A stretch of 64,000 bases of DNA. Origin: Ruditapes philippinarum (lineage: Eukaryota). A program made the translations under genes and the position numbers. This document shows positions 29,766-59,300 of this stretch, in pieces. Each line of letters opens with the position of its first letter. The first letter of the stretch is position 1. The notes beneath the pieces were generated by a model, which was not told the DNA's origin, ran no database searches, and worked only from the letters and a program-made list of their open reading frames with translations. The DNA lies in NCBI RefSeq assembly GCF_026571515.1, contig NW_026866069.1:62001-126000 (forward strand), read 5' to 3'.

Positions 29766-32700
29766 ATGCTTTCCCAGTCATATGTACAAGATGCAAATGC
29801 ACATGTACTGTCAGAGGTGCACACTGACTGCCAGTTTCAAGTTTTACCAAACTCTGATAATGCAGGTAAGTTTCTTTTTAGTTAAATAGCATCTGCAAGA
29901 AAATAATGTAATAAATTACTTTATAATGATATTAAATTAATTTAAAACATCATCAAGTGACTAGATCTGTAAATTAATATTTATAACAGCATTTCTGTGC
30001 ATGAATTTGGTCAGGTCACAAATGCCAAGTTAAATCAACTTTGCGAACATTGACAGGGCCATTAAATTAGTGTATTAATTGTAGTTTCATGCAAAGTAAT
30101 TTCAGATAGTCTCCGGTAGCAAGCTAGCTTTTTTTACAACAGAATTGAATATAGCAAGCTTATATTTACTAGTAGCCACATGTATTGTCACTTAAGTGTA
30201 CTAACAGGTTAACTTCTATTTAGATTTAATAGGAGTTTACTGTTTTCCCGTTACTGCACTAATTAAGGTGAGAATACATTTACACCTGATTATTTTTAAG
30301 GATTTTCATCCATACATGTATCTCAGAAACTAAATTAACATATTATTATATCTTTCAGTGACAAGATTTAAGATAAATCTTCACAATTTAAAAGCCAAGT
30401 CAGAAGGGCATTACTGCAACAGGAAGGCTGTAAAATTAAAAACAAATGAAAATGTGAACACTGAATTAAACGATAAATGCACAGAATCTGACACTAGATT
30501 TGGACATGAAGAAGAAAAGGATGCATATCATAGAGAGTATAGAAGAACTGAGGATCAAAAAGAGAAGTTTGATGAAGATGGGGACTTGATATTAGATAGA
30601 CACCCCTGTCAAAGTTTAAAACTTGATGACGATAGAGATTTGATATTAGACAGACACTCATGTCAAAGTTTAAAACTAGATGAAGATGGGGACTTGATAT
30701 TAGAAAGACACTCTTGTCAAAGTTTAAAACTCAATGAAGACAGCCACAGGCCTTTGAGCAAGGAGATAGACACACAGGAAGATGAATATAAAGATGTAGA
30801 CTCCTTTGAAATTAAAGATAATAGTGAAGAGACTCCAGTTAGGAAGAAAATAAAGTTAGAAAAGGGAAGTAATACTGGTAATATGAGCTCAATTTTAAAT
30901 GCTGAGGATAACATCAAGGATGATTTAGATTGTGAAACAGAAAATACACCTCGTGACAAATTGATAGAAACAATTCAAAGTTCAATACAAGCATGTCAAC
31001 ATTGTAATGCAAATTATGAAAGTCAAAAGAGACCTTTTGAATTTGACACATCAGGAAAAAATGTAATTGTAAACTCAGAAAGACTTGTCAATGATAGAGT
31101 TAAGATGTGCAAGAACTGTGTCAAAGAGCAACATTCAGGTGAAGATGTGCAGAAAGAAGTCAAGACAGGAATTAGTGATAATGCAGAAAGTTTCAGAAAA
31201 GCTAGTGAGGTCTCGGACACAGTCAAAGACAATGATTATGATTCATCTATTTATTATATAAATATAAGTAGGTATAACTTAACAGTTAAAGGGACTCCAC
31301 TGAGATTTTTTGAAATGTTTGGTCTGAAAATATTTTTTTCCAGATAAATGTACCATTTGATGTAACTTTAGACCACAGACTAATCTTTGTGCAAAATTTC
31401 AGATAATACGCACACTTCGTTTTTTCAGAATAATTATTCAAATTGTAAAAAAATGACCCAAAATGAAAAGCTTTTAAATGCTTTTCACTCAAATCGTGCT
31501 AAAAAAAGCATAAACATACGATTTTCAATTTATTTCAAAGTATATTTCTTAACTGTCTTTGCATATATTTATACCCCCAAAAACGAAGTTTGGGTGGGTA
31601 TATAGGAGTCACCCGGTGGTCGGTCGGTCGGTCGGTCCAGACGTCCGTTGCATTTTCCTTGTCTCTAATGGTTGGAATTCAATATAACTTCATACAATGG
31701 TCAAGCACATTGAGAGGAAGTGCAGTGCACAAGAACCATAACTCCATCATGACTCATTAAAGAGTTATTCCCCTTTGTTACTTTTCCTTGTCCGTGGCAT
31801 AACTTGAAAACTACTGGTTGGAATTCAAAACAACTTCATACAATGGTCAAGCACAATAAGAGGAAGTGTAGCACATAAGAACCATAACTCTGTCTAAAGT
31901 AATTACAGAGTTATTACCCTTTGTTACTTTTCCATTGCTTTTTTCTTGTCCAGAGCATAACTTGAAAAGTACTATTTGGAATTCAATACAATTTCATACA
32001 ATGGTCAAGCATATTGAGAGGAAGCGCAGTGCACAGAAACTATAACTCTTTCTTGACTCATTTAAGAGTTTTTGCCCTTGGTTACTTTTAAATGTCCAGT
32101 GCATAACTTGAAAATTATTGTTTGGAATTCAATGAAACTTCATACAATGGTCAAGGGCAGTGAGATGAAGTGTTTTTGTTACTTTTTTGTCCAGTGCATA
32201 ACTTGAAAAACTAGTAGTTGGAATTCAATACAAACTTCATACATGGTCAAGCGAAATGAGAGGAAGTGCAGTGTACAATAACCATAACTCCATCTTCAGT
32301 ATTTGTAGAGTTATTACCCTTTGTTCCCTTTCCTTGTCCAGTGCATAACTTAAAACTAATGTTTAGAATTCAATGCAACTTCATTCAATGGTCAAGCGCA
32401 ATGAGAGGAAGTGCAGTGCTCAAGAAGCATAACTCTTTCTGGATTTATTACAAAGTAATTCAATAAAACTTCATCAATGGTCAACCATATTGTAAGGAAA
32501 TGCAACATACAAAAACCACAACAATATTTAATTGCCCACAACCATAACTCTTTTTCAATTCTTTAACAAGGTATTCTGTAACTTCCTCATTTCTGAAGCA
32601 GTCTTGTGGGGTATTAAATAGTTCTTGTTCTGAGCCCCAGCTCATTTATGTAAGAAATTCAAATGTTATGTATTTAGGCTTTTAAAGCTCAGTGGAGTCC

Positions 32701-35700
32701 TTTTAATACATGGATATATTAATTTATTGATTATGATTAATTACAAAAATATGTTGTTACAATGCAAATATAGTTACTTTATTTCAGTTCAAAACTCACA
32801 CATGTTAACTTTGTATTTATTTGTAATATCAGATATTAAATGTCCAGGTCCTGCTGGCTTCAAAACTATTTATGTACAAAGTAATAAAATCTCAATAACC
32901 TTGTAGAATTGTAAGCTTCATGTATAAAAGAAATTGAGCTTTGTTACTGTAATCTTTTTACTGCTGAGGCAGGAATAATGGTTTGTCTATGCCAATATTA
33001 AGTATAACTGTACAAATGTATACAGCTGACAAAAGTTCATGTATGTTTATATTCAAATCCATGATGCCCACACAAGCATTATTTCCAAGATAAAAGCTGG
33101 AGAAGTACATACTGTATACTTAGATATTTAAGGGTATAGCCTTTAAAAAATTTAAGACATTCTTTTACTAGAAGATACTAGAAATCATAATTTTGAATTT
33201 ATTGCAGAGCACAGTTTGTCTACAGAATTAAATAATGTAGGTGAACAGGTATGTTACTTTAAGCCACATGTATTTAATTTCCAACATTATGAATTTTTAT
33301 TTAGTATAACAACATAATAGAAATTGCTTCATATTTATAAGCATTGATAGAATCTCTAACAAGTTGACATCTTAAGACTGTTATAACTTTAAAAAGTTGT
33401 TCTGAAAAGATCTTACTAACATGTGAAATGTATTTAAGTTGGCTGAGTTTATTTCATTTATTTTAGGACTGTTTAGTGGCTGAGTTTATTATGTTGTGTA
33501 CATTTATTTAGGACTATCTTAACTTGAAAGTCATTTTATAATATTTTGTTCTTTCTCTAGACAGTTTTGAGAAACTTAGCCTTTCTTTGGCAAATAAAAG
33601 CTTGATGTACTTCATCTTTGTTTTTAGGTATGGCATGGTTCTCTGTTACTAAGTGACTATATTATATGTAACCATGGCAACTTTGATGACAAGGTCATAG
33701 TAGATTTGGGAGCAGGTGTAGGACTGTCCAGTATTGTTGCTGCCATGTATGCAAAGATGGTGTACTGTACTGGTAATATTGTGTTGTTGGTGGTGGTGGT
33801 GGTGTTTTTTTTACAACTTTGGAATCTTTATTCAGCAAAGATTTTGATAAATGAAATTTGGCAGTGCATGTTAAAGTATTTGATGTTGTTTAATGTCATT
33901 ATTTGGAATTAAGTGTAAACCACCATAGGTGTTAAATATAGTAAAATGAAACATATTAAGCCTATTATAAAAGAATTGTGTGACAAATTTTGATTTTCTT
34001 AATTTCAAAAGAATGTCTAAAGTACAAAAGTGATATTATATGAGGTGCTCTAAGTTAAATCAAAAGAAATTTGTTTTATATATTCCTTCTTGAATGTTAT
34101 ATAAGTGAAAATAGAACTATAATACAAACTTATATTTCTTAGATACTGGGGAGAAGATTTTATCACTGGCAGAGAGCAATATTTTAACAGCCAGGACTTG
34201 CCCAACTCTTCCTAGACAACTGTGTGATGTACATGTCAAAGAATTGGACTGGTTTAAAGGAATGGAAGGTTTGTAAAATAGAAAAAGCAAATAAATGGGT
34301 TCTCTATACATTGATTAGCTATAGCAAATCATTTAATATTCATATCTTTGAGATGCATGAAGTTTACCAATAGGAACAGGGTTTGATTCTTATTTTGAGA
34401 ATTACAATTACTGAATCCTAGTATTTCTGGGTTATTTCACCATAAGTAAATTCTTGTATATCTGCCTTGAGTATACATAAGAACTTCAGTCTTGATGACA
34501 AAGTGGTGAAGTTTCCTGATGTCTATTTTTGGTTTGTAACAAATAATTCCATTCTTTGCCTTTATAATTTAACACTTTTCTTACTGAATTTATTAAATGC
34601 ATTTTGCCCTGCTTTAGATTGGAATAGTCTATTCATAATTTAAGGGATTTCAATATCAAAATACAAATATTCAGCTATACATATAAGTGCAGACTGGCCT
34701 GGCAAAAGCTAAACACTTAGTTTGTTACAGCAGGTTCAGGGTTAGACACTAATTAGTTTGTCACAAGTGACAGGACTGAGCTCAAAATTTAATTGAACTC
34801 TCAACAGGCATTTCATAAAAACTTATGGCATCTCTGAGGAAGTAATGATTTTGTAAATATTTTAATTTTATCACTAAACCTAATAAGATTTTTAAAAATG
34901 GACTTTTTGGTCTCTATAATCAGTTTTGGGGATATTAAGGTTAAATTTAAAGTAAGCTAAAATAATAGCCTGACTGCTCAGGCTGGTCTGGCTCTTAATA
35001 GATGACAAAAGCTTGTCCATTATGATTTCAGCAGCATACATGTAACTAGCTGCATAAGGGTCAAATGAATTGAAATTTGATAATCAAAAGTTCCCTTATT
35101 AAAATATAATGTTTTCCAGAGAGTTTTGAGATAAAGCTCCAGGGTTATGATCTAATCAGTATGCAGCATTTTCAATAAAAACATATGGTGACAGATGCAA
35201 GGTCACCGTCTTGTAATGCCAAACATTCATCATTTGACAGACATGATAAATTATGTATGTTTTAATGTATATATCTATAATTTTAATTGGATGATACAGA
35301 TTATTTGGTATTTTCATGTAAGAATTTGTATCACATGTTGCAAATTCTATACTTTGCATAAGTAATATGATTTTTAAAAAGTACCCATTATACATTATAT
35401 AAAAAAAATTATGAATATGTACATTATGAGGCACATTATCCCTCAGAAACAAATAAATGAGCCCATGTTAGCTGCTTTTAACCTGAAGAAAGTAGTTGTA
35501 AATGTGAAATTATCTGTCATAAAAGTAACAAAATGTAAACAAAGTAGTATAAACTGTTTTTTTACTTCCAAACTGAATCACTAATACTGTACTAATTGGA
35601 TGAAAAAGATAGTTTAGGTGATTGGCCAATGAGTAACTTTTTTAAGACTACAAAAATTAAATGCTTTTGAGATATTAATATGAAAGGATTATCTGAGGCA

Positions 35701-38700
35701 TAATGGGCCTTTAGGCTGTTATAAGACCCACATACTACAGTATAATGTTATTGAAGTGAAATGGATGTTTATAAAAATTTAAATACATTTTGTAAATGCA
35801 TTAACTAATCACTTAGCAGTTTTACCTTTCTTGAATGTATTGATAATTTCAGAGGACAGCTCTTTATTCAGTCTTACTAAAGAGGATATAGAAAGAATCA
35901 ACAGCAGTGATATTCTGATAGCTGCTGATGGTAATTACTTTTATTTCAACTCTTTTTAAACTGCCATAAGTGAAGACTGTGATAATAGAAAATATAATGT
36001 GCAAAATTTTAATAGTACAACCATAAAGACCTAACAAACCATCTTACATTTATTAGTTTCTGAAAAGTTAAAAACAGTTTTACAGTTCCATAGGATAAAA
36101 GGAAATAAATATGAATTTTACAATTTACAATGTAGTTAAAATTGGTCTTAGTTAATGTTCAGAAAGAGTGCAAGTGTACTTAGAAATTACAAAAGTTTTA
36201 GTGATGGGATGTCGCTAAACAGAAAGGAGTTTTCTGCATCATTATTTTGGTAAGTTTGTTGAAACTAAGTTCATATATGACAAAATGTTTTTTTCATTTA
36301 CAGTGATTTATGACTTTGACATCACTGATGCATTCTTCAACATAGTGAAACAGATCATGACCCACCCTCCTTGTAAAACTCTGTACATTGGTTTGGAGAA
36401 GAGGTAGAATACATACACGTACATTTTTCATTTTTCAAAATATAAACATTAAACTATTATTTTGTAGATATCAGCTTTTTTTACCCATAACTTGCTGACG
36501 TTATATAATGGATTTGCCCAATTTTGAATTTAGAACAGTCCAATCAAAGTTGCAGGGATTTTAAAATATTTAAAAAAAAAAGAGCAAAAAATGAAATATC
36601 AGCAGTATAGAGTCTGGTAGGATTGCACAGAGGGTAGACTGGCCTTGCTGTCTACTGAATTTTGTTTAAGGGCTATGTCCGTAACTTCAAATCTTGATTT
36701 CAATGATTATTTGTTAACAGAAGATGTGCATATCCTTTGCATGCCCTGTCAGATTATTTAGCTCTGAGTAATAGTCCCTAGTATGTTTAGAGTTTCCACA
36801 CTATTTCTGGGCAATTGCTTTCTTGATTTCATCAAAACTTTTTTTTGGAAAGGAGATGAGCATATCCTGCTCAGACCATTTATAACCCCTAAAAAGGTGA
36901 AATTATTGTATTTTTGATTGTAATTTGCTTGTTTTAGTTATAACTTTATTATTGGTAAATTAATGGATTGTCTTCATACTTTGACAGAACAACAATGGAA
37001 CACAACACAGCAAAGGAGTTCAAACTGAATCTGACCTTGACCTTGAATTACCTTGATCTTGAAGTTCAAATTATTTATCATAGCTATTTTGCTTTTACAG
37101 TTTTCAATATAATAGGGTTAATACCAAATCCATTTTCAGTCCTTTTATGTATTTTGTGTTACTGAAAGACTTCAGTCAAGTGATTGTATCTTGTATTGTT
37201 GGATATCAATTCAACAACCTTATGTGTACTATTTGACAGTGTTAGACTTTTATATGTATCTTTTTGTTTCCTAGGATTGTCTTTACATGTGAGGACCTCA
37301 CTTTCACAAGTCCAGGTTACAATTATTTCCGTCTTCAACTCGACGATCTTTGTTCAGGGGATGATGATGACACAGAGGCTTTGTTTGAAGTGGAGGAGAT
37401 TGACCCTAGCTTCCCACAGTTTTTCCAGTATAACAGAATTAGACAATTGGTAAATTTAAAACTATTGCTGATACCTTTTTAGCTCAACTGAGCACAATGT
37501 GCTCAAGGGTGAGCTTTTGTCATCACTCTGCGTCCGTCGTGCGTCCTTCAAAAAATGGCGTCAAACTTTTCAAACAACATCTCCTCCTAAACCACATGGC
37601 CAATTGCAACCAAACTTTACAGAAATGATCCTTAGGTGGACCCCTTTCAAAGTTGTTCAAAAATTTAAATTCCATTAAAAACTCTGGTTGCCATGGCAAC
37701 CAATAGGAAAAACTTAAAAAATCTTCTTTTAAAAAACCCTAAGAGCTAAAGCTTAGATATTTGGCATGAAACATCTTCTAATGAGTGTCTACCAAGTTTG
37801 TTCAAATCAAAGCCCTGGGGATAAAATTGGCCCCGCCCCAGGGGGTCATTGATTTTCCCTATATGCATTTAGTAAAAACTTAAAAATCTTCTTTTAAAGA
37901 ACTCAAAGAGCTAGAGCTAAGATATTTAGCATGAAACATGTTCTAATGGGTGTCTACCAAGTTTGTTCAAATAAAAGCCCTGGTGTCAAAATTGGCCCCG
38001 CCCCGGGGGTCATTGATTTTCCTTATATGTGTATAGCAAAAACTTAAAAAATCTTCTTTGAAAAAACCCAAATAGCTGGAGTTTAGATATTAAGCATGAA
38101 ACATCTTCTAGTGAGTGTCTACAAAGTTTGTTCAAATAAAAGCCCTGGGGTCAAAATTGGCCCCATCCCGGGGGTCATTGATTTTCCTTATATGACAGTG
38201 TATAGCAAAAACTTAAAAATCTTTGAAAAAACCAAGATAGCTAGAGTTTAGATATTAAGCATGAAACATCTTCTAGTGAGTGTTTACCAAGTTTGTTCAA
38301 ATAAAAGCCCTGGGGTCAAAACTGGTCCCGCCCCAGGGGTGTCATTGTTTTTAACTGTATGTGTATAGTAAAAACTTAAAAAGTCTTCTTTTAAAAAACC
38401 CAATGAGCTAGAGCTTAGATATTAAGCATGAAACATCTTCTAGTAAGTGTCTACAAAGTTTATTCAAATAAAAGCCCTGGGGTCAAAACTGGCCCCGCCC
38501 CAGGGGTGTCATTGTTTTTAACTATATGTGTATAGTAAAAACTTAAAAAATCTTCTTTTAAAAAACCCAATGAGCTAGAGCTTAGATGTTTAGCATGAAA
38601 CATCTTCTTATTGGTGTCTACCAAGTTTGTTCAAATAAAAGCCCCTGGATTAAAATTGGCCCTGACGGGCGGGGGGGGGGGGGTACATCATTGTTTTTCA

Positions 38701-40925
38701 TTATATGTGTGTAGTAAAAACTTAACATTGTGAAACATCTTTTAATGGGTGTCTTCCAAGTTTGTTCAAATAAAAGCCCCGGGGTTTAAACTGGCTCCGC
38801 TCCGGGTGCCTTTATACAGGTGAGCGACCTCAGAGCCATCATGGCCCTCTTGTTCTTTGAGTGATTGATCCTTTCCTTAACCTTTTCAATAAACTTGTGT
38901 GAATTTTTTTAAATATATTGATTTTCTTTCACAGCATGTGAAACCATTAGTGACTGTAAGAAAGAAAATATTTGTTTATTCTATATCTTATTTAGTGAAA
39001 TCTAAGTGAAATGTTTATGAACAGAAAGTAAGAAAATAAAACATTTTTTGGCACAAAATACTTGATAAGCCAACAATCAAAACAGTATAACATCATTATA
39101 CCCCCGAAACGAAGTTTTGGGGGTGTTCTATAGGAGTCACTCGGTGGTCGGTCTGTTGGTCGCTCAAGTGGTCTGTTGCATTTTCCTTGTCCGGAGCATA
39201 ACTTGAAGAGTAATGATTGGAATTCAATACAACTTCATACAATGATCAAGAACCATAACTCTTTTTTGTCTAATTACAGAGCTTTGCCCTTTGTTATGTT
39301 TCCTGAGCATTACTTGAAAACTACTGGTTGGAATTCAAAACAACTTCATACAATGGTCAAGCACTATAAGGGGAACTGCAGTGCACAAAAACCATAACTC
39401 TATCTAAAGTAATTACAGAGTTATTTCCCTTTGTTACTTTTCCATAGCTTTCTTTTGTCCAGACTAATAGTTGGAATTCAATATAACTTCATATAATGGT
39501 CAAGCACATTTAGAGGAAGTGCAGTGCACAATAACCATAACTCCATCTTGACTTATTTATAGAGTTATTGCCCTTTGTTACTTTTCCTTGTCTGGAGCAT
39601 AACTTGAAAACAACTAGTTGGAATTCAATACAACTTCATACAATCATCAAGCACATTAAGAGGAAGAGCAGTGCACAAAAACCATAACTCTATCTTGACT
39701 ATTTATAGAGTTATTGAGCTTTGATACTTTCCCTTGTCCGGAGCATAACTTGAAAAGTACTGGTTGGAATTCAAAACAACTTCATACAATGGTCAAGCAC
39801 ATTTAGAGGAAGTGCAGTGCATAAGAACCATAACTCTATCTAAAGTAATTACAGAGTTATTGCCCTTTGTTACTTTTCCTTGTCCGGAGCATAACTTGAA
39901 AACTACTAGTTTTAATTCAATACAACTTCATACAATCATCAAGCACATTAAGAGGAAGTGAAGTGCACAAAAACCATAACTCTGTCTTGACTATTTATTG
40001 CTATTTATTGTTACTTTTCCTTGTCCGGAGCATAACTTGAAAACTACTAGTTGGAATTTAATACAATTTCATACAATGGTCAAGTATATTGAGAGGAAAC
40101 TCTTTCTTGACTCATTTAAGAGTTTTTGCCCTTTGTTACTTTTATTGTCCAGTGCATAACTTGAAAATTGAAAATGGTTGGAATTCAATGAAACCTCTTG
40201 CAATGGTCAAGGGCAGTGAGATGAAGTGCAGTGCACAAGAACCATAATTCTATTTGGACAAATTACAGTTATTGCCCTTTGTTACTTTTTTGTCCAGTGC
40301 ATAACTTGAAAATTAGTAGTTGGAATTAGATACAACTTCAAACAATGGTCAAGGGCAATGAGAGGAAGTGCAGTGTACAATAACCATAACTCAATCTTCA
40401 GTATTTGTAGAGTTATTGCCTGTTGTTCCTTTTCCTTGTCCGGTGCACAACTTAAAAACTAATGTTTAGAATTCAATGCAACTTCATACAATGGTCAACC
40501 ACATTAAAAGGAAATGCAACATACAAGAACCACAACTATCTTTAATTGCCCACAACAAGAACTCTAGTTCAATTCTTTTGGAAGGTATTCTGTTACTAGT
40601 AACTTCCTCATATCCGAAGCAGTCTTGCAGGAGTATTAATCACATTTAGTGATAGTTCTAGTGTACAGATAATGTTCATATGTACATCTTCGTGTTAATA
40701 ACCAATCAATTGTTTAGTAATAGATCAGTGAAAATTTATATGGCAGGTGAGAACATGGAATAGTTACATTACACATATTCTAAATAAAAATATATATCAT
40801 TTATTGAACATATAAAATAAATTCCTTGTATGTTTCATACATATAGACATGTGTGTGTAAATTTGTTGTTGTTTTTTTTCAAACCTCAGGAGTTATGGAA
40901 ATTAACAGCTTCATTCAAGTCATAG
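29766..40925 (+). CDS. METTL22: Methyltransferase-like protein 22 (9 coding exons, about 569 aa)
   Basis: Exons 29766-29865, 30359-31267, 33208-33248, 33628-33772, 34143-34268, 35853-35930, 36304-36403, 37275-37449 and 40890-40925, with consistent phases. Motifs VLSEVH, DEDGDL, HSLSTELNNVGEQVWHGSLLL, SAM motif I VDLGAGVG, ELDW, AADVIYD, LEKR, FPQFFQYNR and QLELWK. Confidence 0.92.
31290..32702 (+). mobile_element. Kolobok-like MITE interrupted by a nested HINE
   Basis: ttaa|agggactccactgag ... ctcagtggagtcctt|ttaa; same family as the uninterrupted copy at 52406-52704. Confidence 0.75.
31568..32630 (+). mobile_element. HINE-like element, family E (about 155-165-bp monomers)
   Basis: Start tttatacccccaaaaacgaagtttgggtgggtata, (ggtc)n, monomers with ggaattcaatacaacttcatacaatggtcaagcac. 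Sister copy at 39096. Confidence 0.82.
37476..38853 (+). mobile_element. HINE-like element, family A
   Basis: tttttagctcaactgagcacaatgtgctcaagggtgagc start, about 165-bp monomers, end caggtgagcgacctcagagccatcatggccctcttgt. Confidence 0.85.
39096..40661 (+). mobile_element. HINE-like element, family E
   Basis: ttatacccccgaaacgaagttttgggggtg start, about 8 monomers, end gagtattaatcacatttagtgatagttctagt. Confidence 0.85.
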
Positions 40926-42182: not shown

Positions 42183-43918
42183 ACTCACCTGAGCACAAAG
42201 TGCTCAGAGGCCAGCGTTTGTGATGGCAGTGTATCTGTCATTCATCGTTATCCACAATTTCTATAAACAACATTTTCTCCTTAACCACTGTATGTATTCT
42301 GACCAATCTTTACAGGAATGAACCTTAGGTGGTCCTCTAAAAAAGTTATGTAAATGGTTCCAGTCTGATAAATAAGTAGGTCATAGGAGTTAAAATAAAA
42401 TACTTAAAATCTCCTTCTTAGAAACTAGAATGCCCAGAGCTTAGATATTTGGCATGTATTATCACTTGGGGGTCACTTATATGTATTTTACATTGACTTA
42501 TACAATGAAAGTGTCTAAGAAATCTTCTCAGAAAGTACAATGCCTATTTGATATTTGGCATGTATTATCACCTTGTGATCCTCTACAAAAGTTAAAAATT
42601 CATGCCCCTGAGTTCTAAATTTGCCCACCTTGTTGGTTACTTGGTTTATGTAGTTTTGTATAGGAAAATACGTTTAAGTTTTCTTTTGTGATACTACAAT
42701 GCCAAGAGTGTATGTATTTGTCATTTTATAGCAGACATCTAGAAATATTTTTAAAATTATGCAGCTTGAGCAAAAAGGGACAAACCAAATGTGACCACAT
42801 TACTGACTTTGTAAAAAAATGGGTCAAAGACAGAAAAGGCCAGGTTGCATATGTATACAAAATATCTTGAGGCTGTGATGTTACTTAAATTTTCTACCAC
42901 TGTCTGACCATTGATGTTGATAATTTAACTTAGTTGGTAAACCGGAAAAGAATGAGCATCAGACCTGAAATGGAATCCCACAATATGGGACCAAAGTCAT
43001 GTCAATGCTGTGAACCACATATTAAGAGGTTGTGGTAAGTAGTTGCTGAGAAAACTGTTACGAAAATTTCCTACTATCTATTGATCATTAATTATGTCAA
43101 AATTTAATGTTGAAAATTTAACTAAGTCGGCAAACAGGAAGTGGATGAGAGACAGACCTGAAATCGAATCCCACAGTATGGGACCATGTGTTGATGCTGT
43201 ATACCAAATATGAAAAGGCTGTGATAAGTAGTTGCTGAGAAAACTGTTACAAAAATTTCTTACTATTGACCATTAATGTTGAAAATTTAACTAAGTTGGC
43301 AAACAGGAAGTGGATGAGCGACAGACCTGAAATCATCTCCCACATTATGGGACCATATGTTAATGCGGTGTGCCAAATATCAAGAGGCTGTGATAAGTAG
43401 TTGCTGAGAAAACTGTTACAAAAATTTCTTACTATTGACCATTAATGTAGAAAATTTAACTAAGTCGGCAAACAGGAAGTGGATGAGCGACAGACCTGAA
43501 ATCGAATCCCACAGTATGGGACTATGTGTTGATGCTGTATACCAAATATCAAGAGGCTGTGATAAGTAGTTGCTGAGAAAACTGTTACGAAAATTTCCTA
43601 CTATTGACCATTAATGTTGAAAATTTAACTAAGTCGGCAAACAGGAAGTGGATGAGCGACAGACCTGAAATCGAATCCTACAGTATGGGACCATGTGTTG
43701 ATGCTGAATACCAAATATCAAAGGCTGTGATCAGTAGTTGCTGAGAAAACTGTTACGAAAGTTTTTTCCCCACCCGCCTGCCGCCCGCCCGCCCCCTGCC
43801 CAACATTCACCATACTATAACCCGGGTTTGCACCAGTGCAACCCGGCCAAAAAACTGTGAACTTTTCTGGCAAAATATCTCAGGTGATCAATCCAGGGCC
43901 ATAATGACCCTCTTGTTT
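42183..43918 (+). mobile_element. Old family A-related HINE containing a nested element
   Basis: Start ctcacctgagcacaaagtgctcag, end caggtgatcaatccagggccataatgaccctcttgttt. Confidence 0.65.
42735..43853 (-). mobile_element. HINE-like element, family F (168-bp monomers)
   Basis: aaatttaactaagtcggcaaacaggaagtggatgag at about 43114, 43284, 43452 and 43620; (gccc)n microsatellite; terminal hairpin ccgggtttgcaccagtgcaacccgg. Left boundary approximate. Confidence 0.75.
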
Positions 43919-45259
43919 ACATATGGCGATTAAATATTAATGAAACTAGATACATATTATATAGGCTATTTATATTTTTCTCTGACAAATACATGTACAT
44001 GTATTTATTAAATGTGATAAAAAGTAGGCAATCTTATTAAAATCATATCCTAACTGTTGCTCCACTACCCTTTGCTTGGTAGTAAAGAGTAATGGAGTGA
44101 AAACGATCTGATTTGAATGAGATTGAAAAGTTAAGGCTGCCAAATTAGTATTTTGTGGAAGTGTGTATCATACAAATTAGGGGAATGTTCATGTATTTTG
44201 AATTGATTTATACAGTCATTATCTACAAACATGATAAATAGCCTGATTTACCACTGAGAAGATTTATTGTCTGTGTATTTATATATTCTTTGCAGGTAGT
44301 TGAAATCTCAAGATTATTGACTGAAATGAGTCAATCTAAAATTTGAAATTCATCAATGTGAACTTTTTGCGTGCAGAAGTATTTGTGAAAATAATTATGA
44401 TTTCTTAAAGAAAATAATGTTTTTGTGATATCATTAATTAAGCAGGTACATGTTAAGAATTTGCTGTTATTGTAATCGTTTTATTCAGTTGTTTAATACC
44501 TTTATTATTTATATAATTGTTTGAAATGTACATCATTAGTTTGATAAAGGACCTTATCAGACATTTCTTTGTCATATTTTGAAACATATTTTGTTATATG
44601 AATAACCTGTTATGTTACACATATATTGTTTCATTAAAACATTTGTGATTTGTACAAATTTAAAAAACAAGCAATGAAAACAAAAATAATCTCAGTAGCA
44701 AGCTCAAACTTATTCAATTGAGATGCTGTATGAAAATGCGTTTTCAAATGATAGAAGGAAGTTTGCCTAAAAAGGAATAATTTTTGTGCGATCAAATCTT
44801 TGCAAATAATTTCAATTGGAAAAAATCACAAATATTTCCATGTCGCAAAATGAACCACTTATACAGTACAAAGCATTGATATTCAATAGATAGATAAAGT
44901 AAAGTTTTGACATTTTGTTTAAACAATAACCACCATGATATTTTCACACTAATATATAGATTACATCAGATTTTAGAAGAGTAAAAAAAAAGTTCTATAT
45001 ATCAAAGCAGAAAAAAAAATCAAATTTAGATATAAGAGAATGTTGAAAAGTCAGGTGAAAAGAAAATAATGTAAGTAATAATAAAATTTTCAATTAAATT
45101 AATATAAAAATGTAAAATTATTACATTTGTATAATAATATTATGTTACTTTAAAAATATATATAACTTTAGATAGTCAAAGTAAAATTGCTTCCTTCAGA
45201 TTTCAGGAACAGTCACAAGGGAAAGTTGGAATGGTTATTGACATAAGGCAATAATAATT

Positions 45260-47803
45260 ATGGGAGCAAATGTGCAACCAACAGCAAAAAAATATCCTGA
45301 AAACACAAAGGAACAACCCCAGGAAAATCTTTTAGAAAACAAGTCAGACAAACAAGAACTAGGAAGAAGGACCAAAAACTTAAACACACAACCCCAGGAA
45401 GAAAATTCAAGAAACAAAGCAGATAAACAGGCAGAAGGAATACAAAGTACTAAAAATGGAACAGAATTGCAAGAAAAAATACAAGACATACAGGAACACA
45501 AACTAGTAGCAGAAAAAGCAAATACTGAAAAGGAACAGAGCAGGGAAAAGATACCAGACTACAAGGCAGACAAACAGATAGCTGGAAATCTAGGTACTGA
45601 AAACACACTGACAAAACTTTGGATAAAAATACCAGAAAACAAGTCAAATGGTCAAGTAGCTGGGAAAAAAAGGACTGGAAATACTAAGGAACAATCTCGT
45701 GGAAAGATACCAGAAAACAAGGCTGACAAACTGATAGCAGGAGATCTAAGTACTGAAAACACACAGACAAATCCTCAGACAAAAATACCAGAAAACAAGT
45801 CATATGGTCAAGTAGCAGGAAGAAGATGTTGTGAAATGACACAAAACAGGGCAAACAAACAAGAAGCAGGGAGAATATGTACTGAAAATACAATGGAACA
45901 AATCTGGGAAAATATACCAAAACATGATGCAAACCATAAAGTAGCAGGGAAAAAAAGCACTGAAAACACAAAGACACCTACCAGGAAAACGATACCAAAA
46001 AACAGAGCAGATGTTCAAATAGCAAGGAAAAAAAGCACTGAGAACACAAAAGCCCAACCTCTAAAAAAAATATCAGAAACCAAGGCAGATTCAATTCATC
46101 AAGCTGATGAAACAAATAAACATCAGGTTGTAGTTGCGATTGATTTTGGAACAGTCCATTCGGGTTTTGCATTCTCCTTCAAGGGCAATGAGGAAAAAAT
46201 AATCTCAGCCAAACATGGAGGCATATTTCAAGAGGACAGAGTACCCACAATATTGCTTTTAAATCCAAACAAAACAGTCCATTCATTTGGCTACAATGCA
46301 CAGACACATTTCCATAAGCTTTCAGAACTCAAGAGGTCAAAATTTTACTACTTTGAAAATTTTAAAATGAAAATATACAATGAAAGTAAATTTAACAGAG
46401 ATATGAAAATTTGTGATTTAAATGGTAAGCCACTTCGTGCAATGACTGTTTTTTCCAAAGCAATAAAGCATTTAAAAGATGAAGCAACAAATATAGTCCA
46501 TCAATTTAAAACTGGCCTGAAAGAAACAGACATACAATGGATGATAACAATTCCTGCAATATCTTCTGATTCTGTAAGACAATTTATGCGTGAGGCTTCT
46601 ACTGATGCAGGAATCCCAGAAGCACATCTGCAAATTGTCCTTGAACCTGAGGCTGCTGCGTTATACTGTAAAACCCAAAAAATGTCAAAAGAGATGTATT
46701 GTGGGTTTAAATACTTACTTGCTGATCTAGGAGGTGGAACATCAGACATATGTGTACATAAAATATTAGATGGTGGCAAATTGCAAGAAATGTACCGTGC
46801 AAATGGAGAGGCTAAAGGTGGTAGTGATGTTGATGAATGTTTTATCAACATGATGGAAACATTAGTAGGAAAAGAAGTGTGGAGCAAATTCTCATCAACC
46901 TCCTCATCAGCCTATGTAAGCCTTGTCAATGAGTTTAGATTAAAGAAGAAGGACTTTAAATCAAACACAGCTGCATTAAAACTGAAAATGGAAAATGCAC
47001 TGGTGCATCTGATCCACAAAAAGGATGGTAAGAGCTTCAAAGATGTAATAGATAAGACAAAATATGCTGGAAAACTTAGATATGGTGCTGATGCTAGACT
47101 GATGATCAGTGGAGAGATATTAGAAGAAGTTTTCAAGCCTTCAGTTGATAAAATCATTGATAAGTTAAAAGATGCACTACATCATTGTTCTGATAGTGAA
47201 ATCAAAACAATACTTTTAGTTGGAGGTTACAGTGAATCTCCATATGTAAGGGAGAGAATTAAGTCAGAGTTCAGTACACTAAGAGTTATCCTTGTAGATG
47301 ATGCCAGACTGGCTGTGTTAAATGGAGCAGTGGCGATGGGCTGGAATCCTAGAAATATCATACAACGTAGGTCAAGGTACACATATGGATATTTAATAAA
47401 TCATTACTTCAGACATGGAAAAGATCTAAATGAACTGAAGTTCAAAGTGGATGGAAGAGCACGGTGTGGTAAGGTTTTCCAAAAGATTATAGAGAAAGGT
47501 CAGACTCTGGAATCTGGACAAACTTTTAATTTTGCAGGAGATTGGACAGCTACTGAACAAGACATGAAACATATTATAAAGAAGGCTGAACTATACAGAT
47601 CTACAGAAGAGACTCCTCAATACTGTACGGAGGAGGAAGGGTGTAGTTTAGTAGGAATGATCAAAGCAAAGCCTCCACGTTTAGGATGGCCTGATGCCTT
47701 GAAAGTTAATTACAGTGTTACTGTTGGAGAGACTGAGTTTACAGTGAAAGTTTTCAGCCCTGAAGCAAAAATGGAGTATATAGCTCAAATGGATTTCCTG
47801 TGA
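45260..47803 (+). CDS. HSPA12: Heat shock 70 kDa protein 12-like (HSPA12 family) with a repetitive N-terminal extension, 847 aa, single coding exon
   Basis: VVAIDFGTVHSGFAFS (phosphate 1), PTILLLNP, WMITIPAI, VLEPEAAALYC, LADLGGGTSD (phosphate 2), LLVGGYSESPY (adenosine), AVLNGAV, RRSRYTYG and C-terminal DFL. The first about 285 aa are tandem 26-aa repeats. Confidence 0.93.
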   Translation: MGANVQPTAKKYPENTKEQPQENLLENKSDKQELGRRTKNLNTQPQEENSRNKADKQAEGIQSTKNGTELQEKIQDIQEHKLVAEKANTEKEQSREKIPDYKADKQIAGNLGTENTLTKLWIKIPENKSNGQVAGKKRTGNTKEQSRGKIPENKADKLIAGDLSTENTQTNPQTKIPENKSYGQVAGRRCCEMTQNRANKQEAGRICTENTMEQIWENIPKHDANHKVAGKKSTENTKTPTRKTIPKNRADVQIARKKSTENTKAQPLKKISETKADSIHQADETNKHQVVVAIDFGTVHSGFAFSFKGNEEKIISAKHGGIFQEDRVPTILLLNPNKTVHSFGYNAQTHFHKLSELKRSKFYYFENFKMKIYNESKFNRDMKICDLNGKPLRAMTVFSKAIKHLKDEATNIVHQFKTGLKETDIQWMITIPAISSDSVRQFMREASTDAGIPEAHLQIVLEPEAAALYCKTQKMSKEMYCGFKYLLADLGGGTSDICVHKILDGGKLQEMYRANGEAKGGSDVDECFINMMETLVGKEVWSKFSSTSSSAYVSLVNEFRLKKKDFKSNTAALKLKMENALVHLIHKKDGKSFKDVIDKTKYAGKLRYGADARLMISGEILEEVFKPSVDKIIDKLKDALHHCSDSEIKTILLVGGYSESPYVRERIKSEFSTLRVILVDDARLAVLNGAVAMGWNPRNIIQRRSRYTYGYLINHYFRHGKDLNELKFKVDGRARCGKVFQKIIEKGQTLESGQTFNFAGDWTATEQDMKHIIKKAELYRSTEETPQYCTEEEGCSLVGMIKAKPPRLGWPDALKVNYSVTVGETEFTVKVFSPEAKMEYIAQMDFL

Positions 47804-49192
47804 CATAGAAAAAAGACATTTTGGAGAGTAACATCATGAATATCTTAGAAAGATACATTGATATGATTGTACCATTGATATAAAGGTTTCAAAGAAATAT
47901 TTTTATGTTATAACCTAAGAACTGCTTTGTCAACCGATTTAGCAAGAAGAGAAAACCACAATGATTCATCTAGAAACTGTGCTAAAAAGTTGTATACACA
48001 AAATTTGTTTAAAGATAACATTATTTCCCACCAAAACACAAAGCAAATTTTGGAAGTTTAGATATAGTGTTGCCACCATTAGAAAAGAAACATTAAAATA
48101 TGAGAATCTGCCCTTGTAAGAAATAAAATGTCCATTTTCAATGAAAAATGACTATGTGAGAACTATGTGTAATATTGCATTGAGACAAATAATCATGTCT
48201 TTTTTTTAAAAGCAGAAAAAAAAATGTGAGTAACTTTTCTAGATTTGATGACTGATTATATTTCATATTTGTGTAAATAGATAATAAAATATTTTATGCA
48301 TGTTCTGTTATTTTTAGCTCTTGCTATACAGTGTTCTTTTGTCATGGTCAAATAGGCTATATGATTTTTCAGACCAATCCTTGCATATTTGTAATAGCTT
48401 TTATTTTCTTTATGCCAAAATTTATTTCTTCTAGAGATAATTTATAAATGCTTTACTCTATAGATTTGCAGCATTCATTTGGATTTTAATTTATAACTAA
48501 CTTGCCATTTATGATGGTATTATTATAAAGTTTATGTTGAAGTTTTTAGTCTTTGCTGTTTCTCAGTCTTGTATTTCTAACTAGAAAGGATGTATACTTT
48601 GTGTTACTAATTGAGTATAAAATTTCATGTACATATTTATGTTTGTATATGTCTGAGGAATATATAAATTAATACAATATAAAATAAAAAATGATATAGT
48701 TAGTATCGATTTTGATACCAAACTGTCAGAACATGGCTGCATTGATGTTGCTGTCTGCACACTTTTACCATGATCATAACTTTTTATGTTTTGTCTTCAT
48801 ACCATCAAGGGCAAATTAATGAAATTCTCTTGTTTTTTTTTCTCAAACTGGCTATAACTTTGTTATTTCAAAATGACCTTGACCTTCAGCTTTAAGTGAC
48901 CTTGACCATCAAGGTCAAATTATTGAATTTTGGTTAAGTTGTCATAATTTTGTTATTTATGTATGGATTTGATTTATATGTGGACAAATGACATTTGTGA
49001 CCAAACAAATATGTTGAATGATTTAGTTATGACCTTGATCTCTAAAAATTAATGACCGTTACTATTCTGCTTATATTTTCTTAACTTTGTCTTTAATTTA
49101 TGGAAATGATTCATACTTGGACAAAACAAAAAGTGTGACTAGACAGACCTATTTAAATAAAAAATATTAAAAACCTACTATTTTTCCTTTAT

Positions 49193-53165: not shown

Positions 53166-53302
53166 GAGTCATTTCATTCAGCACACTAGGAGTAAACACG
53201 AAGTAAATAAAATGTAGGTTCAATAAAATGACAATTAAGGGGTGTAATTAAATCAGTTAAGTTAAAATACAATTTCTTTGGGCTATCTAAATTCGGGCAA
53301 AC

Positions 53303-56300
53303 ATGCCGACTGCAGTGTCACTGTCGCAAATGGTGGATTTGTCCCTGGGGACACCAGAGATAGGGTCTGTGAATTTCAATGTGATGCATACACTCCTTCA
53401 TGCTATCATAAGGAAATTAAGTATTGCTGATCACAGAGCAGAGATAAATGAACATGACAGGGATTTTTTGGCAACATCAAAAATACGAGCTAGATCCACA
53501 CTCAGTGATGCTGACAGTGGGCGGGGTGAAGATTCTGAGGATGCCACAAGTGAGAAATCTGGAGCTCCCCCATTTCGACCATCCCCATATCATAGGATGG
53601 AATTAAAGGTTGAAAAACTTGCACAGCAGTTGGAAAGTTTAAATCAGCTTCCATCGAATAGTGAATTATTTGATCGTACCACAAAATCAAAAAGTGAAAG
53701 TTCTACAGATAGGCCTGTAGCTGACATGTGGCAATATATGCAACTTAAAAAAAGGGTTGATGCTAATGAAGAAGGTGTAGGAAAGGTATATTTTCAGTCT
53801 ATTTAATATTTTAGATATTTTAATAAGATATGAAAGTGTTTGTGTAAATCATTTAGAACAGTCAAAAGAACATGTCATTGAGTCCTTACATCAGTCATCG
53901 AATTTAGCACTGGCCCGGTGGCCCATGGCCAGTGAAAAATAGTTTGGGCCAGTGAAAATTTTAAGAAAATTTAGTGAAATATATAGAAGAATAAATTCAA
54001 AACTGGAATTGGGGGTAGTAAATTCAAAATCTTAAATTCATTGACTGTTACATGATATCAATTTCTTTGCATAACAAGATGAGATGTAGAAAGTTATTAT
54101 CTATTGCCAACAATACTTGTTTACAGTATGTCATTCAAGAGAGGAAAGATCATACGGGGAAGTCAAAGGCCGGGCTTGCCCAACTTGCCCAGCTATAGAC
54201 TACACAAACATGTATACTTATACATCAAATCAAATCAAATATATAGATTCCTGTACCTATCTGTGAAAATTTCAGTGTCATTTCTTATTGGGCTCCACCA
54301 TTTTTAATGTAACTCGTGGATAATCTGCAGGGTATTGCAACTTTTCGCTTAAGAGTAATCATTGAGGTATTCTGAGTGAAAATGAAACTGCTGCACAAAT
54401 TACCCAATGACGCCTTTAAAATGAAATATATCAAATAAAACTTGACTCAGTTTTTTTGTCTGACTTTCCTTGCATAGCATTTGCCTTCTTTCATAATTTT
54501 ATTATTATTCAGTGAAATTAGTAAATTTTCATTCAGTAACAGCAATGAGGTAATTTAAGAAAATCTTCAAAATTTGCGAGTAAAACAACTTTAATTTTGA
54601 AGGTAATTTATGATGTCAGTAAATAGAAAATAAATAGCTTTTAAATCTAATGACATTTCAAGCTGGTAATGATTTTACTGCTTTGTTAGGTGAAGATCCT
54701 TTTTTTTCCATAAATTAATATACAATGTATCTGATCCAATTAATACAATATTATTTGCCAGTATTAATATACATGTATATGATCAAAAAGTTGTAATGAA
54801 TTAAATTATTTATTTTAAAAAATTTTTTTATCACAAGAGCATGATTGTTTCAGTACAGTTATCACAGTTCTGAAATTTTGTTTCCCCTGTAAGTAGCTTA
54901 AAAACCTTTAATTATGTTATAAGTAGGGTGAAAAGTTTGCATAAAATGTTTGATGTTATGTAAAAAAAAGTTTTTAGAAAGATAAAAAAAAATCTGAGCA
55001 TGTTTCTCAAGATATTATGATGATGTTTATATTCCCAAAAAAGGACATTGATATTGCCAATTTAAATTGCCCCACACTGCGTGCCCTGTGTTAGGGAGTT
55101 TGGGTTAGAATTTACTGGCACTGAGAGAAAGTTCCTGACATTTCTGTGATTTCTTTGACATATAATTAATACTAAAATACCTTTTTGCCAGAGTGGTCCA
55201 AGAGTCAACTAATGGATTGAAAGTTATCAACATTTCAACAAGAGGGTGTTTTATTCAGATGTTTTTCAATGTAAATTAACACTTGAAAAACAAGAAGATT
55301 AAAATTGTTAGATTGAAGGAAAGTCAATTTAATTGTTTATCCTGTGTATAAATCAAATGAAAGTGTTGAAGTAGGTGAAAATGAAATGTCATTGAAATGT
55401 TTAAAAGATGGTCCTATCTTGTTTGAATTGAACAGCTACGTGGGGTAGCTATGGTCCATGACAATTTGTAAACTCTCTGATCAGATTATATACAGACAAG
55501 CTTTTCTGATAAAAGAAATGTCTTAAAACAAATCTGACTGACACTATTTTTTTTACAGTCTCTGTGTATTTTGAAGGTATTAACATAATGCAAGTATTTA
55601 TTACAATTTCAAATAAGTGATAAGATTAAATATTCTTGAATTTGAATTTTCAATATTGATCCAACTAATGATTAATCAAGTAGAAGTGAAGCTGGTTTCA
55701 GGCTTCAGTTATTTATTTTGAATCATTTGAAATCATTGTCGACTGTCTCTTACATAAACTCACTACAGTAGTGCGGGGTAAATAGGAAAATTGAAGTCAC
55801 AATTAAGCTTGATTTTATCTCACTTTATATTGATCAAATGAAATGAATCAGATGGAATGTTTTATGTCATGCTGTCAATTGATGAAAATGAATTGAGGTA
55901 AAAAAAGCAAGAATAACATTTTCTACAAGGCATTTTTAGCTCACCTGTCACAAAGTGACAGGGTGAGCTTTTGTGATCGCTTTTCGTCCGGCGTCTGTCC
56001 GTCGTCCGTCCGTCCGTAAACTTTTACTTTAAATGACATCTCCTCATAAACCACTAAGCCAATTTCATCCAAACTTCACAGGAATGTTCCTTTGGTGGTC
56101 ACCTTTAAAAATTGTTCAAAGAATTTAATTCCATGCAGAACTCTGGTTGCCATGGCAACCAAAAGAAAAAAACTTTAAATATCTTCTTTTAAAAAACCAT
56201 AAGAGCTAGTGCTTAGATATTTGGCATGAAACATCTTCTAGTGAGTGTCTACCAAGTTTGTTCAAATAAAAGCCCTGGGGTCAAAATTGGCCCCGCCCCG

Positions 56301-59300
56301 GGGGGTCATTGATTTTCCCTATATACATATAGTAAAAACTTAAAAAATCTTCTTTTAAAGAACCAAAAGAGCTAGAGCTAAGATATTTAGCATGAAACAT
56401 GTTCTAATGGGTGTCTACCGAGGTTGTTCAAATAAAAGCCCTTGGGTCAAAATTGGCCCCGCCCCGGGGGTCATTGATTTTCCCTATATGCATATAGTAA
56501 AAACTTAAAAAATCTACTTTTAAAGAACTCAAAGAGCTATGGCTAAGATATTTAGCATCAAACATGTTCTAATAGGTGTCTACCAAGTTTGTTTAAATAA
56601 AAGCCCTGGGGTCAAAATTGGCCCCGCCCCAGGGGGGTCATTGATTTTACCTATATGCATATAGTAAAAACTTAAAAAATCTTCTTTTAAAGAACCAAAA
56701 GAGTTAAAGCTAAGATATTTAGCATGAAACATGTTCTAATAAGTGTCTACCAAGTTTGTTCAAATAAAAGCCCTTGGGTCAAAATTGGCCCCGCCCCGGG
56801 GGTCATTGATTTTCCCTATATACATATACTAAAAACTTAAAAAATCTTCTTTTAAAAAACCATAACAGCTAAAGCTTAGATATTTGGCATGAAACATCTT
56901 CTAGTGAGTGTCTACCAAGTTTGTTCAAATAAAAGCCCTGGGGTCAAAATTGGCCCCGCCCCGGGGGGTCATTGATTTTCCCTATATACATATAGTAAAA
57001 ACTTAAAAAATCTTCTTTTAAAGAACCAAAAGAGCTAGAGCTAAGATATTTAGCATGAAACATGTTCTAATGGGTGTCTACCAAGTTTCTTCAAATGAAA
57101 GCCCTGGGGTCAAAATTGGCCCTGCCCCGGGGGGTCATTGATTTTCCCAATATGCATATAGTAAAAACTTAAAAATCTTCTTTTAAAGAACCAAAAGAGC
57201 TAGAGCTAAGATTTTTAGCATGAAACATGTTCTAATAAGTGTCTACCAAGTTTGTTCAAATAAAAGCCCTGGGGTCAAAATTGGCCCCGCCCCGGGGGTC
57301 ATTGATTTTTCCTATATGCATATAGTAAAAACTTAAGAAATCTTCTTTTAAAGAACCAAAAGAGCTAGAGCTAAGATATTTAGCATGAAACATGTTTTAA
57401 TAAGTGTCTACCAAGTTTGTTCAAATAAAAGCCCTGGGGTCAAAATTGGCCCCACCCCGGGGGATCATTGATTTTCCCTATATGCATATATTAAAAACTT
57501 AAAAAATCTTCTTTTAAAGAACTCAAAGAGCTATGGCTAAGATATTTAGCATCAAACATGTTCTAATAGGTGTCTACCAAGTTTGTTCAAATAAAAGCCC
57601 TGGGGTCAAAATTGGCACCGCCCTGGGGGTCATTGATTTTCCTTATATGTGTATAGCAAAAACTTTAAAAATCATCTTTTAAAAAAGCCAATGAGCTAGA
57701 ACTTAGATGTTTAGCATGAAACATCTTCTTATAGGTGTCTACCAAGTCTGTTCAAATAAACAAATAAAAGCCCTTGGGTAAAAATTGGCCCGGGGGTGGG
57801 GGGGCTATATACAGGTGAGCGACCTCAGGGCCATCATGGCCCTCTTGTTTATCATTCTCATCTAGCTATAAAATCTGCAGAAAGTTGGGTTCCAAGCAAC
57901 TTTTATGGCACCATCTTTGTTAGGAATACAATTGTTGTTAGAAAACCTTTGAGGCTATTACACTTTGAATCACAAAGTGGATAGGTGATCACACCCTGAG
58001 TACTAATTTATGATTTTTTTTATTCCCCAACAGAAAATAACATAACAACAACAAACCCTACATTACATGTAATGTATATTAAAGAAAATGATACGTTTTG
58101 ATCTTTTCAATACACAGGTTGTGCAGATTATTGTTTTCAAGCTGTAGAAGCAGTAGAGAAACATGCCTGTATAATAAGCAATGATGCTGTGTTATAGAAA
58201 ATTTTTATTAATCAGTTGTCAAGGAGAAATGCCATGGCTCTTTGATTTCAAATCACCCTCAGTGACTGAATAATGAGAAAATTTCATTTACATTCAAGAT
58301 ACACCATTATTTCCTTGGTGAAATCCACATAAATATTTAATGGGCATCATGGGAGTCTTCATTATATTGAAATGATTCAGGACATTCTTCTCTTGAGTAT
58401 AAATAGCTGATGCTGTGAAATTCTAATTAAGTTTGCACCTAAGAGAGAATCCTAGCAAAGTCTTTTGTTTTGAGTCGGTGTAATGTATCACATTGTTCAC
58501 ATATTCATTGAAACTTATTTTTTAGTAAAATATAATTTTAGAATGTTTTCTCTCTTACCCCCCCCTCCCCTCCTCACACACACACAGCTCTTATTCTGTC
58601 CCCTCAAACATAACACACCTCTAACCTGATATTATCCCTTTCTGTCGATACCGATAAGAACTATGTATATATCGAGGTGTGACACTTTGGGACAAAGATG
58701 ACCTCGTCCTGATTGAATTTTTAAACTGTTTATAAATCTTTCAAGTAAATGCCTAATTATTGATCAGTGAGTTTGATATATCAATTCAAGTACTCATTGT
58801 CTTTCACTATTTTTACATTCTTTTAATTTAAACCATCTATTATTTATAATTTATCAACAGCTTCCTCGTCTTAATGAAAGTGATTGGCCTTTGCCACTTG
58901 TCTAGTGCAATGGCGAGCCTGCACAACCAGACTATACTTTTGGCTGACTTACCAGATATACAAATGTACCAAAAACGAAATATTCTTAAAATGGAAGCTG
59001 GGCATTAGTCTATTCAGAAATTTGGCAGGTTAAGGTCTAATCTCTATATCTAATATAATGTAATCTGCCGACAATATTTTGTGTTAAGCTTGATTATTAT
59101 ATATAAAAGATAAGCTGATGTTTATAACACAAAAAGCTCTATTAGGTATGGTGAATGTCACAAATTTATATTATTATATATGATATAATGTCATAATGTG
59201 ATAAAAAATAGATGATAGGGAATAGATATTTAATATTTAAATATTTTTAAGAACAAATATGCTTGCTTTTACATGAAGCTGTTATCCTCCTTGATCTGAG

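Follow-up and report, generated by a model that had tools for sequence, protein, structure and literature searches.

In a 64,000-nucleotide window of the Manila clam Ruditapes philippinarum genome (assembly GCF_026571515.1, contig NW_026866069.1, positions 62,001 to 126,000 of the forward strand), we analyzed a gene coding for an HSPA12 protein with a long N-terminal repeat array. The gene is a single open reading frame (ORF) of 847 amino acids on the forward strand (45260-47803), and its entire coding sequence lies in one exon. The array keeps an open frame, sits between an N-terminal peptide starting with MG and the first strand of the ATPase domain, is present in the contigs compared, and has differing counterparts at the same place in paralogs. 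The explanation toward which we lean is that this protein is a myristoylated, membrane-held HSPA12 lacking the helical lid of Hsp70, that the array would serve as a disordered spacer, and that the core would bind nearby clients in a nucleotide-dependent manner.

The sequence-only reading of this stretch had described about eleven degenerate units of 26 amino acids with a 78-bp period, a partial A/B alternation, and short units that keep the frame under coding constraint, all of which we recovered. The units quoted there are in the translation, and in the best register the array runs from Gln6 to Ser278 in units of 26, 25, 25, 24, 26, 26, 26, 17, 26, 26, and 26 amino acids. Its extent needed one refinement, as the first unit overlaps the N-terminal peptide from residue 6 on. 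Amino-acid autocorrelation peaked at lag 26 (0.264 versus a maximum of 0.158 in 500 shuffles) and DNA autocorrelation at 78 (0.51 versus a maximum of 0.42 in 100 codon shuffles), matching the period of 78 from Tandem Repeats Finder (TRF). Unit 5 shares 86% of its DNA sequence with unit 7 but 62% with unit 6, suggesting that a 52-residue block was duplicated (lag 52 score, 0.246). A 13-residue half-period was looked for in the array and was not evident.

Each change in unit length in the array preserves the frame, and the coding frame contains no stop codons, compared to 3–18 in each of the other five frames. Neutral simulations started from the unit majority accumulated a mean of 11 stops, a number that the AT-biased model may overstate, and none of the 5000 runs remained free of stops. 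The array is stop-free although two in-frame methionines (Met193 and Met212) lie downstream of its start. Coverage of the locus was read from eight of the 24 listed runs, six of which are contigs, so that neither expression level nor start site can be read from them. A spliced contig of run X3 crosses an intron in the 5′ untranslated region (UTR) and continues through the ATG as far as 45340, and an in-frame stop upstream of the ATG makes 45260 the first in-frame start. A 1544-nt contig of run X15 (kind not on record) covers array and core without gaps (45279-46821), a contig of run X1 bridges 45860-46496 with zero differences, and run X5, recorded as RNA, covers 45592-46050. Run X16 spans the entire locus in a single piece, and the rows listed for it include no indel in the array. 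Raw RNA reads from runs X23 and X24 (4–5% of each run) gave zero depth on the array and almost none on the core.

These data bear on whether the array is an artefact, either non-coding or misassembled, with the protein starting downstream. In favor of this explanation, most of the runs that give coverage are contigs only guessed to be RNA. It is already largely refuted by the spliced X3 contig over the ATG, the gapless X15 contig, the recorded RNA of X5, the independent X16 contig, and the absence of stops where about 11 were expected, and we regard it as highly improbable. The sequence-only reading would have been undone by transcripts splicing or initiating downstream of about 46100, but the contigs show a splice upstream of the ATG and run across from array to core. 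The array is real, coding, and lineage-specific.

The composition of the array is hydrophilic (grand average of hydropathy, GRAVY, of -1.5), with 34% charged residues, a mildly basic balance (54 K/R versus 41 D/E), and proline in most units. In the AlphaFold2 model, 251 residues have a predicted local distance difference test (pLDDT) score <50 and every one of them lies in amino acids 1-280, consistent with the disorder proposed for the array from the start. As a disordered chain, it would have a computed radius of gyration of ~5 nm and a contour of ~100 nm. The possibility that the repeat belonged to a known domain found no support in any search. Pfam returned no family for amino acids 1-285 at E up to 1, LEA included; the Atlas search with the array gave no usable match (template modeling, TM, score <0.25); and a region search with amino acids 1-290 retrieved only the protein itself among 1255 candidates (lengths 465-1483). 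A search of 1.84 billion representatives with the array yielded no true homolog, only the protein itself and P0121. We rejected P0121, a protein with 112-residue repeats, because its score is built up from 35 stretches, none of them above 2.3 bits. Within the clam genome, where a search for the unit had been proposed, the array matched this locus only (10 candidates scored). A folded-repeat check of the unit produced no profile, sequence, or structure match and a low-confidence model; a conditional fold is still compatible with these results.

The hydrophilic, charged, repetitive, and predicted disordered nature of the array would also suit a stress protectant of the LEA or hydrophilin type joined to a chaperone. 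Heat priming alters the expression of some Manila clam HSPA12 genes, the focal gene not being identified among them in the excerpted text (PMC12314336). Against this role stand the proline in most units, the Pfam result, and a helical hydrophobic moment not greater than that of shuffled sequences (z 0.7). Furthermore, no perfect heat-shock element is present in the upstream region, where one-mismatch sites occur at about the background rate of the window. We consider stress protection improbable; of the two roles offered by the sequence-only reading, a lineage-specific tether was retained and the stress-protective module was not.

The focal protein is an HSPA12, composed of an Hsp70 ATPase and a lid-less beta-sandwich. 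The same-exon ATPase domain noticed earlier is therefore only part of the core, which also includes this second domain. The nucleotide-binding domain (NBD) superimposes on a DnaK NBD structure over 351 residues (Z 32.7; root-mean-square deviation, rmsd, 3.4), and for the core as a whole 467 residues can be aligned with ATP-state BiP (Z 32.2, rmsd 4.2). The AlphaFold2 model is confident over the core (amino acids 289-847). Residues D295, G297, T298, E462, D489-GGGT, and G656 are invariant across 98 aligned sequences, and the phosphate and adenosine motifs of the Hsp70 ATPase are retained. The all-beta C-terminus ends in MDFL, without an EEVD motif, and agrees with the lid-less definition of HSPA12. 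Hence, the protein shares with DnaK, BiP, and canonical Hsp70 the ATPase and beta-sandwich folds, docked as in ATP-state BiP, but differs from them in its long N-terminal extension, its lack of a helical lid and EEVD, and an identity of ~20%. Named matches were mostly 12A/12B-like proteins (E down to 5e-237), whereas canonical Hsp70 chains reached only E ~1e-10. The nearest are R. philippinarum proteins named 'HSP 70 kDa protein 12A-like' (~65% identity), which, together with the Pfam and fold matches, bears out the earlier assignment to HSPA12. Seven of the paralogs in the clam genome lie at zero tree distance from proteins so named. All 10 oyster HSP70/HSPA12 motifs (Table 3 in PMC11268181) can be recognized by eye in the core. 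The ratio of nonsynonymous to synonymous substitution rates (dN/dS) of the core is 0.32-0.39 against 12 paralogs (dS ~0.7). Several HSPA12 records are longer (P0008, P0012, P0014, P0021, P0025, and P0097; 930-1230 amino acids), one with guanylate cyclase domains, and may be fusions or annotation merges.

The N-terminal peptide of the protein carries a predicted myristoylation signal. Gly2 follows an initiator methionine encoded by the first in-frame ATG past an in-frame stop, within the spliced contig. Residues 3, 6, and 7 govern the myristoylation of Gly2, Ser/Thr being typical (PMC7463600, PMC4735555, and PMC3668125). We compared 180 HSPA12 proteins, drawn from 209 after dropping those with no Met start, no motif, or an incomplete core. 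An MG start is present in 49 of them, 44 in the clade that includes the arrays and 5 in a second clade. Thirty of the 49 have Ser6, compared to 8 of the 131 non-MG relatives, although these counts are uncorrected for relatedness. Serine at positions 3, 4, 5, 7, or 8 occurs in only 3-8 of the 49, and two sister Mercenaria proteins begin with MGSNPSK. This pattern lends family-level support to the myristoylation that the sequence-only reading had raised as a possibility. In the focal sub-clade, the Gln6 proteins all have Ala3 (12/12, one lineage). Ala3 reportedly permits substrates without Ser6, a result said to come from Utsumi's work of 2004. N-myristoylated proteins such as MARCKS, BASP1, and Src (unique region) carry their anchor ahead of a long disordered region. 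The focal protein resembles them in its MG start and the charged disordered stretch that follows, and differs from them in Gln6, in having no compact polybasic cluster, and in a spacer of tandem copies that varies between paralogs. A second HSPA12 clade (P0166, P0181, P0182, P0183, P0191, and P0176) also has MG starts, and cysteines near the start of some MG members suggest dual acylation. We found no published description of an N-myristoylation signature in HSPA12, and no report of human HSPA12A myristoylation, in the open-licence literature.

We also identified 12 intact, single-exon paralogs with 60-67% identity, and broken copies besides, in the clam's own genome (78 of 898 candidates scored). 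Counting the focal gene, nine of the 13 close intact genes have an array that separates the N-terminal peptide from the first ATPase strand. The units differ: 34 amino acids in L005, L010, L011, and L013, 34 plus 12 in L004 and L007, a different 12 in L014 and L015, and 26 in the focal gene. Units in other records measure 8, 10, 13 (Mercenaria), and 14 amino acids. Hydrophilicity is common to all 13 linkers (GRAVY -1.2 to -2.1), whose lengths range from 12 to 281 amino acids. Exactly 34 amino acids separate residue 6 from the first ATPase motif in L006 and L009, and 68 do so in L011; L005 and L013 have several 34-residue copies. The 34/68 spacing in L006, L009, and L011 indicates that, in this young cluster of paralogs, the 34-residue unit is the entire linker duplicated. 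In the focal gene, unit 1 likewise has Gln6 as its first residue, and 69% of its positions agree with the majority of six later units, against a mean of 37% for 2000 shuffles, none of which reached this value. Judged from such comparisons, the focal unit is likely a tandem-copied ancestral linker between MGANVQPT and the first ATPase strand. All 20 arrays detected in the 180-protein set fall within one MG-rich clade, the N-termini outside it being mostly too short to judge. Arrays are also found in decaying genes such as L016, which has a 240-residue array of 34-residue units before a core broken by stops. Of the recurrent linker expansions found in this likely membrane-anchored HSPA12 clade, the focal array is the longest.

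Divergence among the units (21 pairs of seven full-length units) gave pooled proportions of nonsynonymous (pN) and synonymous (pS) differences of 0.38 and 0.44. The closeness of the two values indicates that the identity of the unit residues is barely constrained. A few residues nevertheless come back from unit to unit (Ile-Pro, Lys-Ala-Asp-Lys, Val/Ile-Ala-Gly, and Thr). Two points extend the sequence-only reading, the likely derivation of the unit from the linker and the expansion of other units at the same spot in paralogs; the slight amino-acid constraint on the units counts against its stress-protective module.

Several observations count against a linker-derived spacer behind a lipid anchor. 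The unit profile, run against 19 linkers, recognized only L014 and L015 (z 4.9 and 4.7) and failed to match the single-copy linkers (z 1.9 in L009 and 0.1 in L006), and DNA alignments of the array to the paralog linkers were not significant (z <=2.5). For these reasons, we infer the linker origin of the focal unit, which is demonstrated in the 34-residue cluster only. Four of the 13 paralogs have no array and there is no sign of selection on spacer length. At the N-terminus, the focal gene has Gln6-Pro7 in place of the canonical Ser6-Lys7, and hence neither Ser nor Thr at position 6. Gly2 has been lost in two of the 13 close paralogs (L004 and L013), both with long arrays, and codons 2-8 are weakly constrained (pN 0.21, pS 0.29, in a small and non-independent sample). 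With these two losses and the weak constraint, the predicted lipid anchor is well supported for the family and likely, but not more than that, for the focal copy. Furthermore, the reference core has derived residues at several sites that are invariant in the paralogs, and its allelic codons are skewed toward nonsynonymous differences (24 versus 6 synonymous in 40 of 94 rows; site ratio 3.6:1). The focal copy may therefore be under relaxed selection.

The main rival explanation is a tolerated expansion. It holds that the linker is permissive and prone to recombination, that the frame stays open because the gene must remain intact, and that array length has no function; the focal copy could then be soluble or decaying. 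It is consistent with the near-neutral divergence of the units, the lack of a length shared by the linkers or of any array in some paralogs, the non-canonical Gln6, the allelic skew of the core, and the arrays of pseudogenized paralogs such as L016. It is harder to reconcile with the array's stability among contigs, where the listed pieces have no array indels and show 5 differences over 1533 nt of array, compared to 71 over 4332 nt of core (haplotypes not independent; five straddling contig pieces excluded). The confinement of all detected arrays to the MG-rich clade also speaks against it, to the extent that short N-termini elsewhere allow. The core itself (46198-47613) segregates as two divergent haplotypes with mostly nonsynonymous differences, and run X16 has an in-frame 9-nt deletion at 47021. 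A McDonald-Kreitman-type count gave P 0.05 from the same 40 of 94 rows and was not relied on. Such an allelic pattern would be expected if the core is under relaxed or diversifying selection and the array is now stable. Overall, we see tolerated expansion as a real but less probable alternative to the anchored spacer.

The two domains of the core evolve at different rates. Maximum-likelihood omega for the 10 young paralogs (L004-L013 cluster) was 0.32 for the ATPase and 1.09 for the beta-sandwich, and 0.26 and 0.72, respectively, over all 13 genes. The value of 1.09 is indistinguishable from 1, and omega values of 0.3-0.5 fit far worse. Most of the hypervariable columns (34 of 43) lie inside amino acids 712-835, which by strand order, assuming the DnaK topology, would presumably include the peptide groove. 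Rapid diversification of the client domain could also be expected if the units were multivalent binding or decoy motifs, whose short hydrophobic cores and basic flanks would engage another Hsp70, a protease or effector of a pathogen, or, in autoinhibition, the client site of the same protein. The few recurrent unit positions agree with this proposal, as does a Leu-Val-Val core amid lysines and arginines in paralog units; Leu-Val-Val between basic residues resembles Hsp70 client motifs. Yet the units are unrelated between paralog groups, their pN is close to pS, and the Leu-Val-Val core derives trivially from the first ATPase strand, all of which makes such motifs unlikely. A complex prediction for the core with units 4-7 scored 0.00, which gives no verdict and was not used as evidence.

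The anchored spacer that we favor could have arisen and operate as follows. Unequal crossing-over would have duplicated a short hydrophilic ancestral linker into eleven tandem copies, which form most of the first 280 residues. Removal of Met1 would expose Gly2 for myristoylation, and the mildly basic array may help membrane binding. The disordered array would then tether the ATPase/client-binding core to the anchor within the reach computed above, and the fast-evolving beta-sandwich would bind clients near the membrane under nucleotide regulation, with the human HSPA12A/SorLA interaction as a model. For such a spacer, continuity, hydrophilicity, and perhaps length would matter, and the exact sequence would not.

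Table 1. Features of the HSPA12 gene and its transcript, in window coordinates.
Feature	Position	Strand	Basis
Upstream non-coding exon	44998..45070	+	Run X3 contig, GT..AG join 45070 to 45207; 5′ end not fixed; 9-codon upstream ORF (uORF) inside
GT-AG intron of 5′ UTR, 136 nt	45071..45206	+	One contig, one run (X3); GTAAGT donor
Coding-exon part of 5′ UTR	45207..45259	+	In-frame stop 45239-45241; short out-of-frame uORF
N-terminal peptide MGANVQPT, predicted N-myristoylation signal (Gly2, Ala3, Gln6)	45260..45283	+	MG in 11/13 close paralogs; family Ser6 enrichment
Array, 11 degenerate units, predicted disordered spacer	45275..46093	+	Periodicity, register, pLDDT <50, pN~pS, no stops
Lone predicted helix in array, aa 67-93	45458..45538	+	AlphaFold2, pLDDT ~74 over aa 71-90
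Hsp70-type nucleotide-binding domain, aa 289-697	46124..47350	+	Pfam HSP70 E 8e-17; DnaK NBD fold match
Beta-sandwich, client-binding-like, with stop codon	47351..47803	+	All-beta in model; no helical lid, no EEVD
Probable 3′ UTR	47804..48507	+	Contigs of X15, X2, X3, X5, X1; poly(A)-type hexamers 48092, 48122, 48283

The window contains several other genes and repeats. A methyltransferase-like gene (30334-37479, forward strand), presumably METTL22-like, has its SAM motif in the exon at 33628-33909 and an 18-residue coding repeat of its own (3.2 copies, 30569-30740) in its first large exon. Nesting of the HSPA12 gene within it is not indicated, as the motif-bearing exons found all end at or before 37479 (last exon not located). 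A single-ORF Tma16 gene (27392-28036, reverse strand; Pfam E 6e-36) points away from the methyltransferase-like gene. An F-box/LRR exon with weak Pfam matches (19544-20203, forward strand) is one that we take to be FBXL15-like. On the reverse strand at 11282-13863, a FLYWCH zinc-finger ORF (E 1e-7) and a transposase-like ORF probably make up a MULE-type element. A coding exon at 53291-53806 (forward strand) has no Pfam match and resembles QRICH2/C16orf96-like proteins. There are also many 145-169 bp tandem arrays (e.g., 3292-4412, 21675-23061, 37703-40518, 43104-43764, and 56168-57760), several of them beside ACGG/GTCC microsatellites, a combination typical of bivalve Helitron-related repeats.

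To our knowledge, human HSPA12A has no repeat array. The human protein nevertheless offers a model, by analogy and not by sequence comparison, for how the clam core might act, as it is a divergent Hsp70 whose binding to the tail of a membrane receptor (SorLA) depends on ADP/ATP (PMC6345817). In bivalves, the lid-less HSPA12 family is massively expanded, with genes numbering in the tens, and its function is described as 'presently unknown' (PMC13580251). Magallana gigas has 89 HSPA12 genes (PMC11268181), and surveys in oysters and ark shells report that the genes duplicate in tandem and respond to stress (PMC11268181, PMC10939072). HSPA12 genes of the Manila clam likewise shift after heat priming (PMC12314336). 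The focal gene shares with this expansion the ATPase, the lid-less client domain, and a multitude of paralogs, some of them in tandem, and differs from it in its single coding exon, DFGTVH in place of DFGTTY, its MG start, and its 280-residue array. The excerpted texts of two bivalve HSPA12 papers (PMC11268181 and PMC13580251) make no mention of N-terminal repeats or a lipid anchor, and we found no description of an anchor or repeat spacer in HSPA12A or bivalve HSP70 among open-licence papers, supplements excluded.

By itself, the array would be a local curiosity. The clade to which it belongs combines a myristoylation-like start, an ever-expanding linker, and a fast-evolving client domain. 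As a speculation that we hold only tentatively, a sizeable share of the bivalve HSPA12 expansion could consist not of bulk chaperones but of recognition proteins that are anchored by a lipid and switched by nucleotide. Held by a myristoyl group and equipped with a conserved ATPase, they would patrol membranes for variable, possibly pathogen-derived, targets; repeated duplication of the linker would retune an accordion-like spacer, and the client groove would diversify. The focal gene would be the longest-reach member found. The three-part pattern of the clade would give the bivalve HSPA12 family a testable lead.

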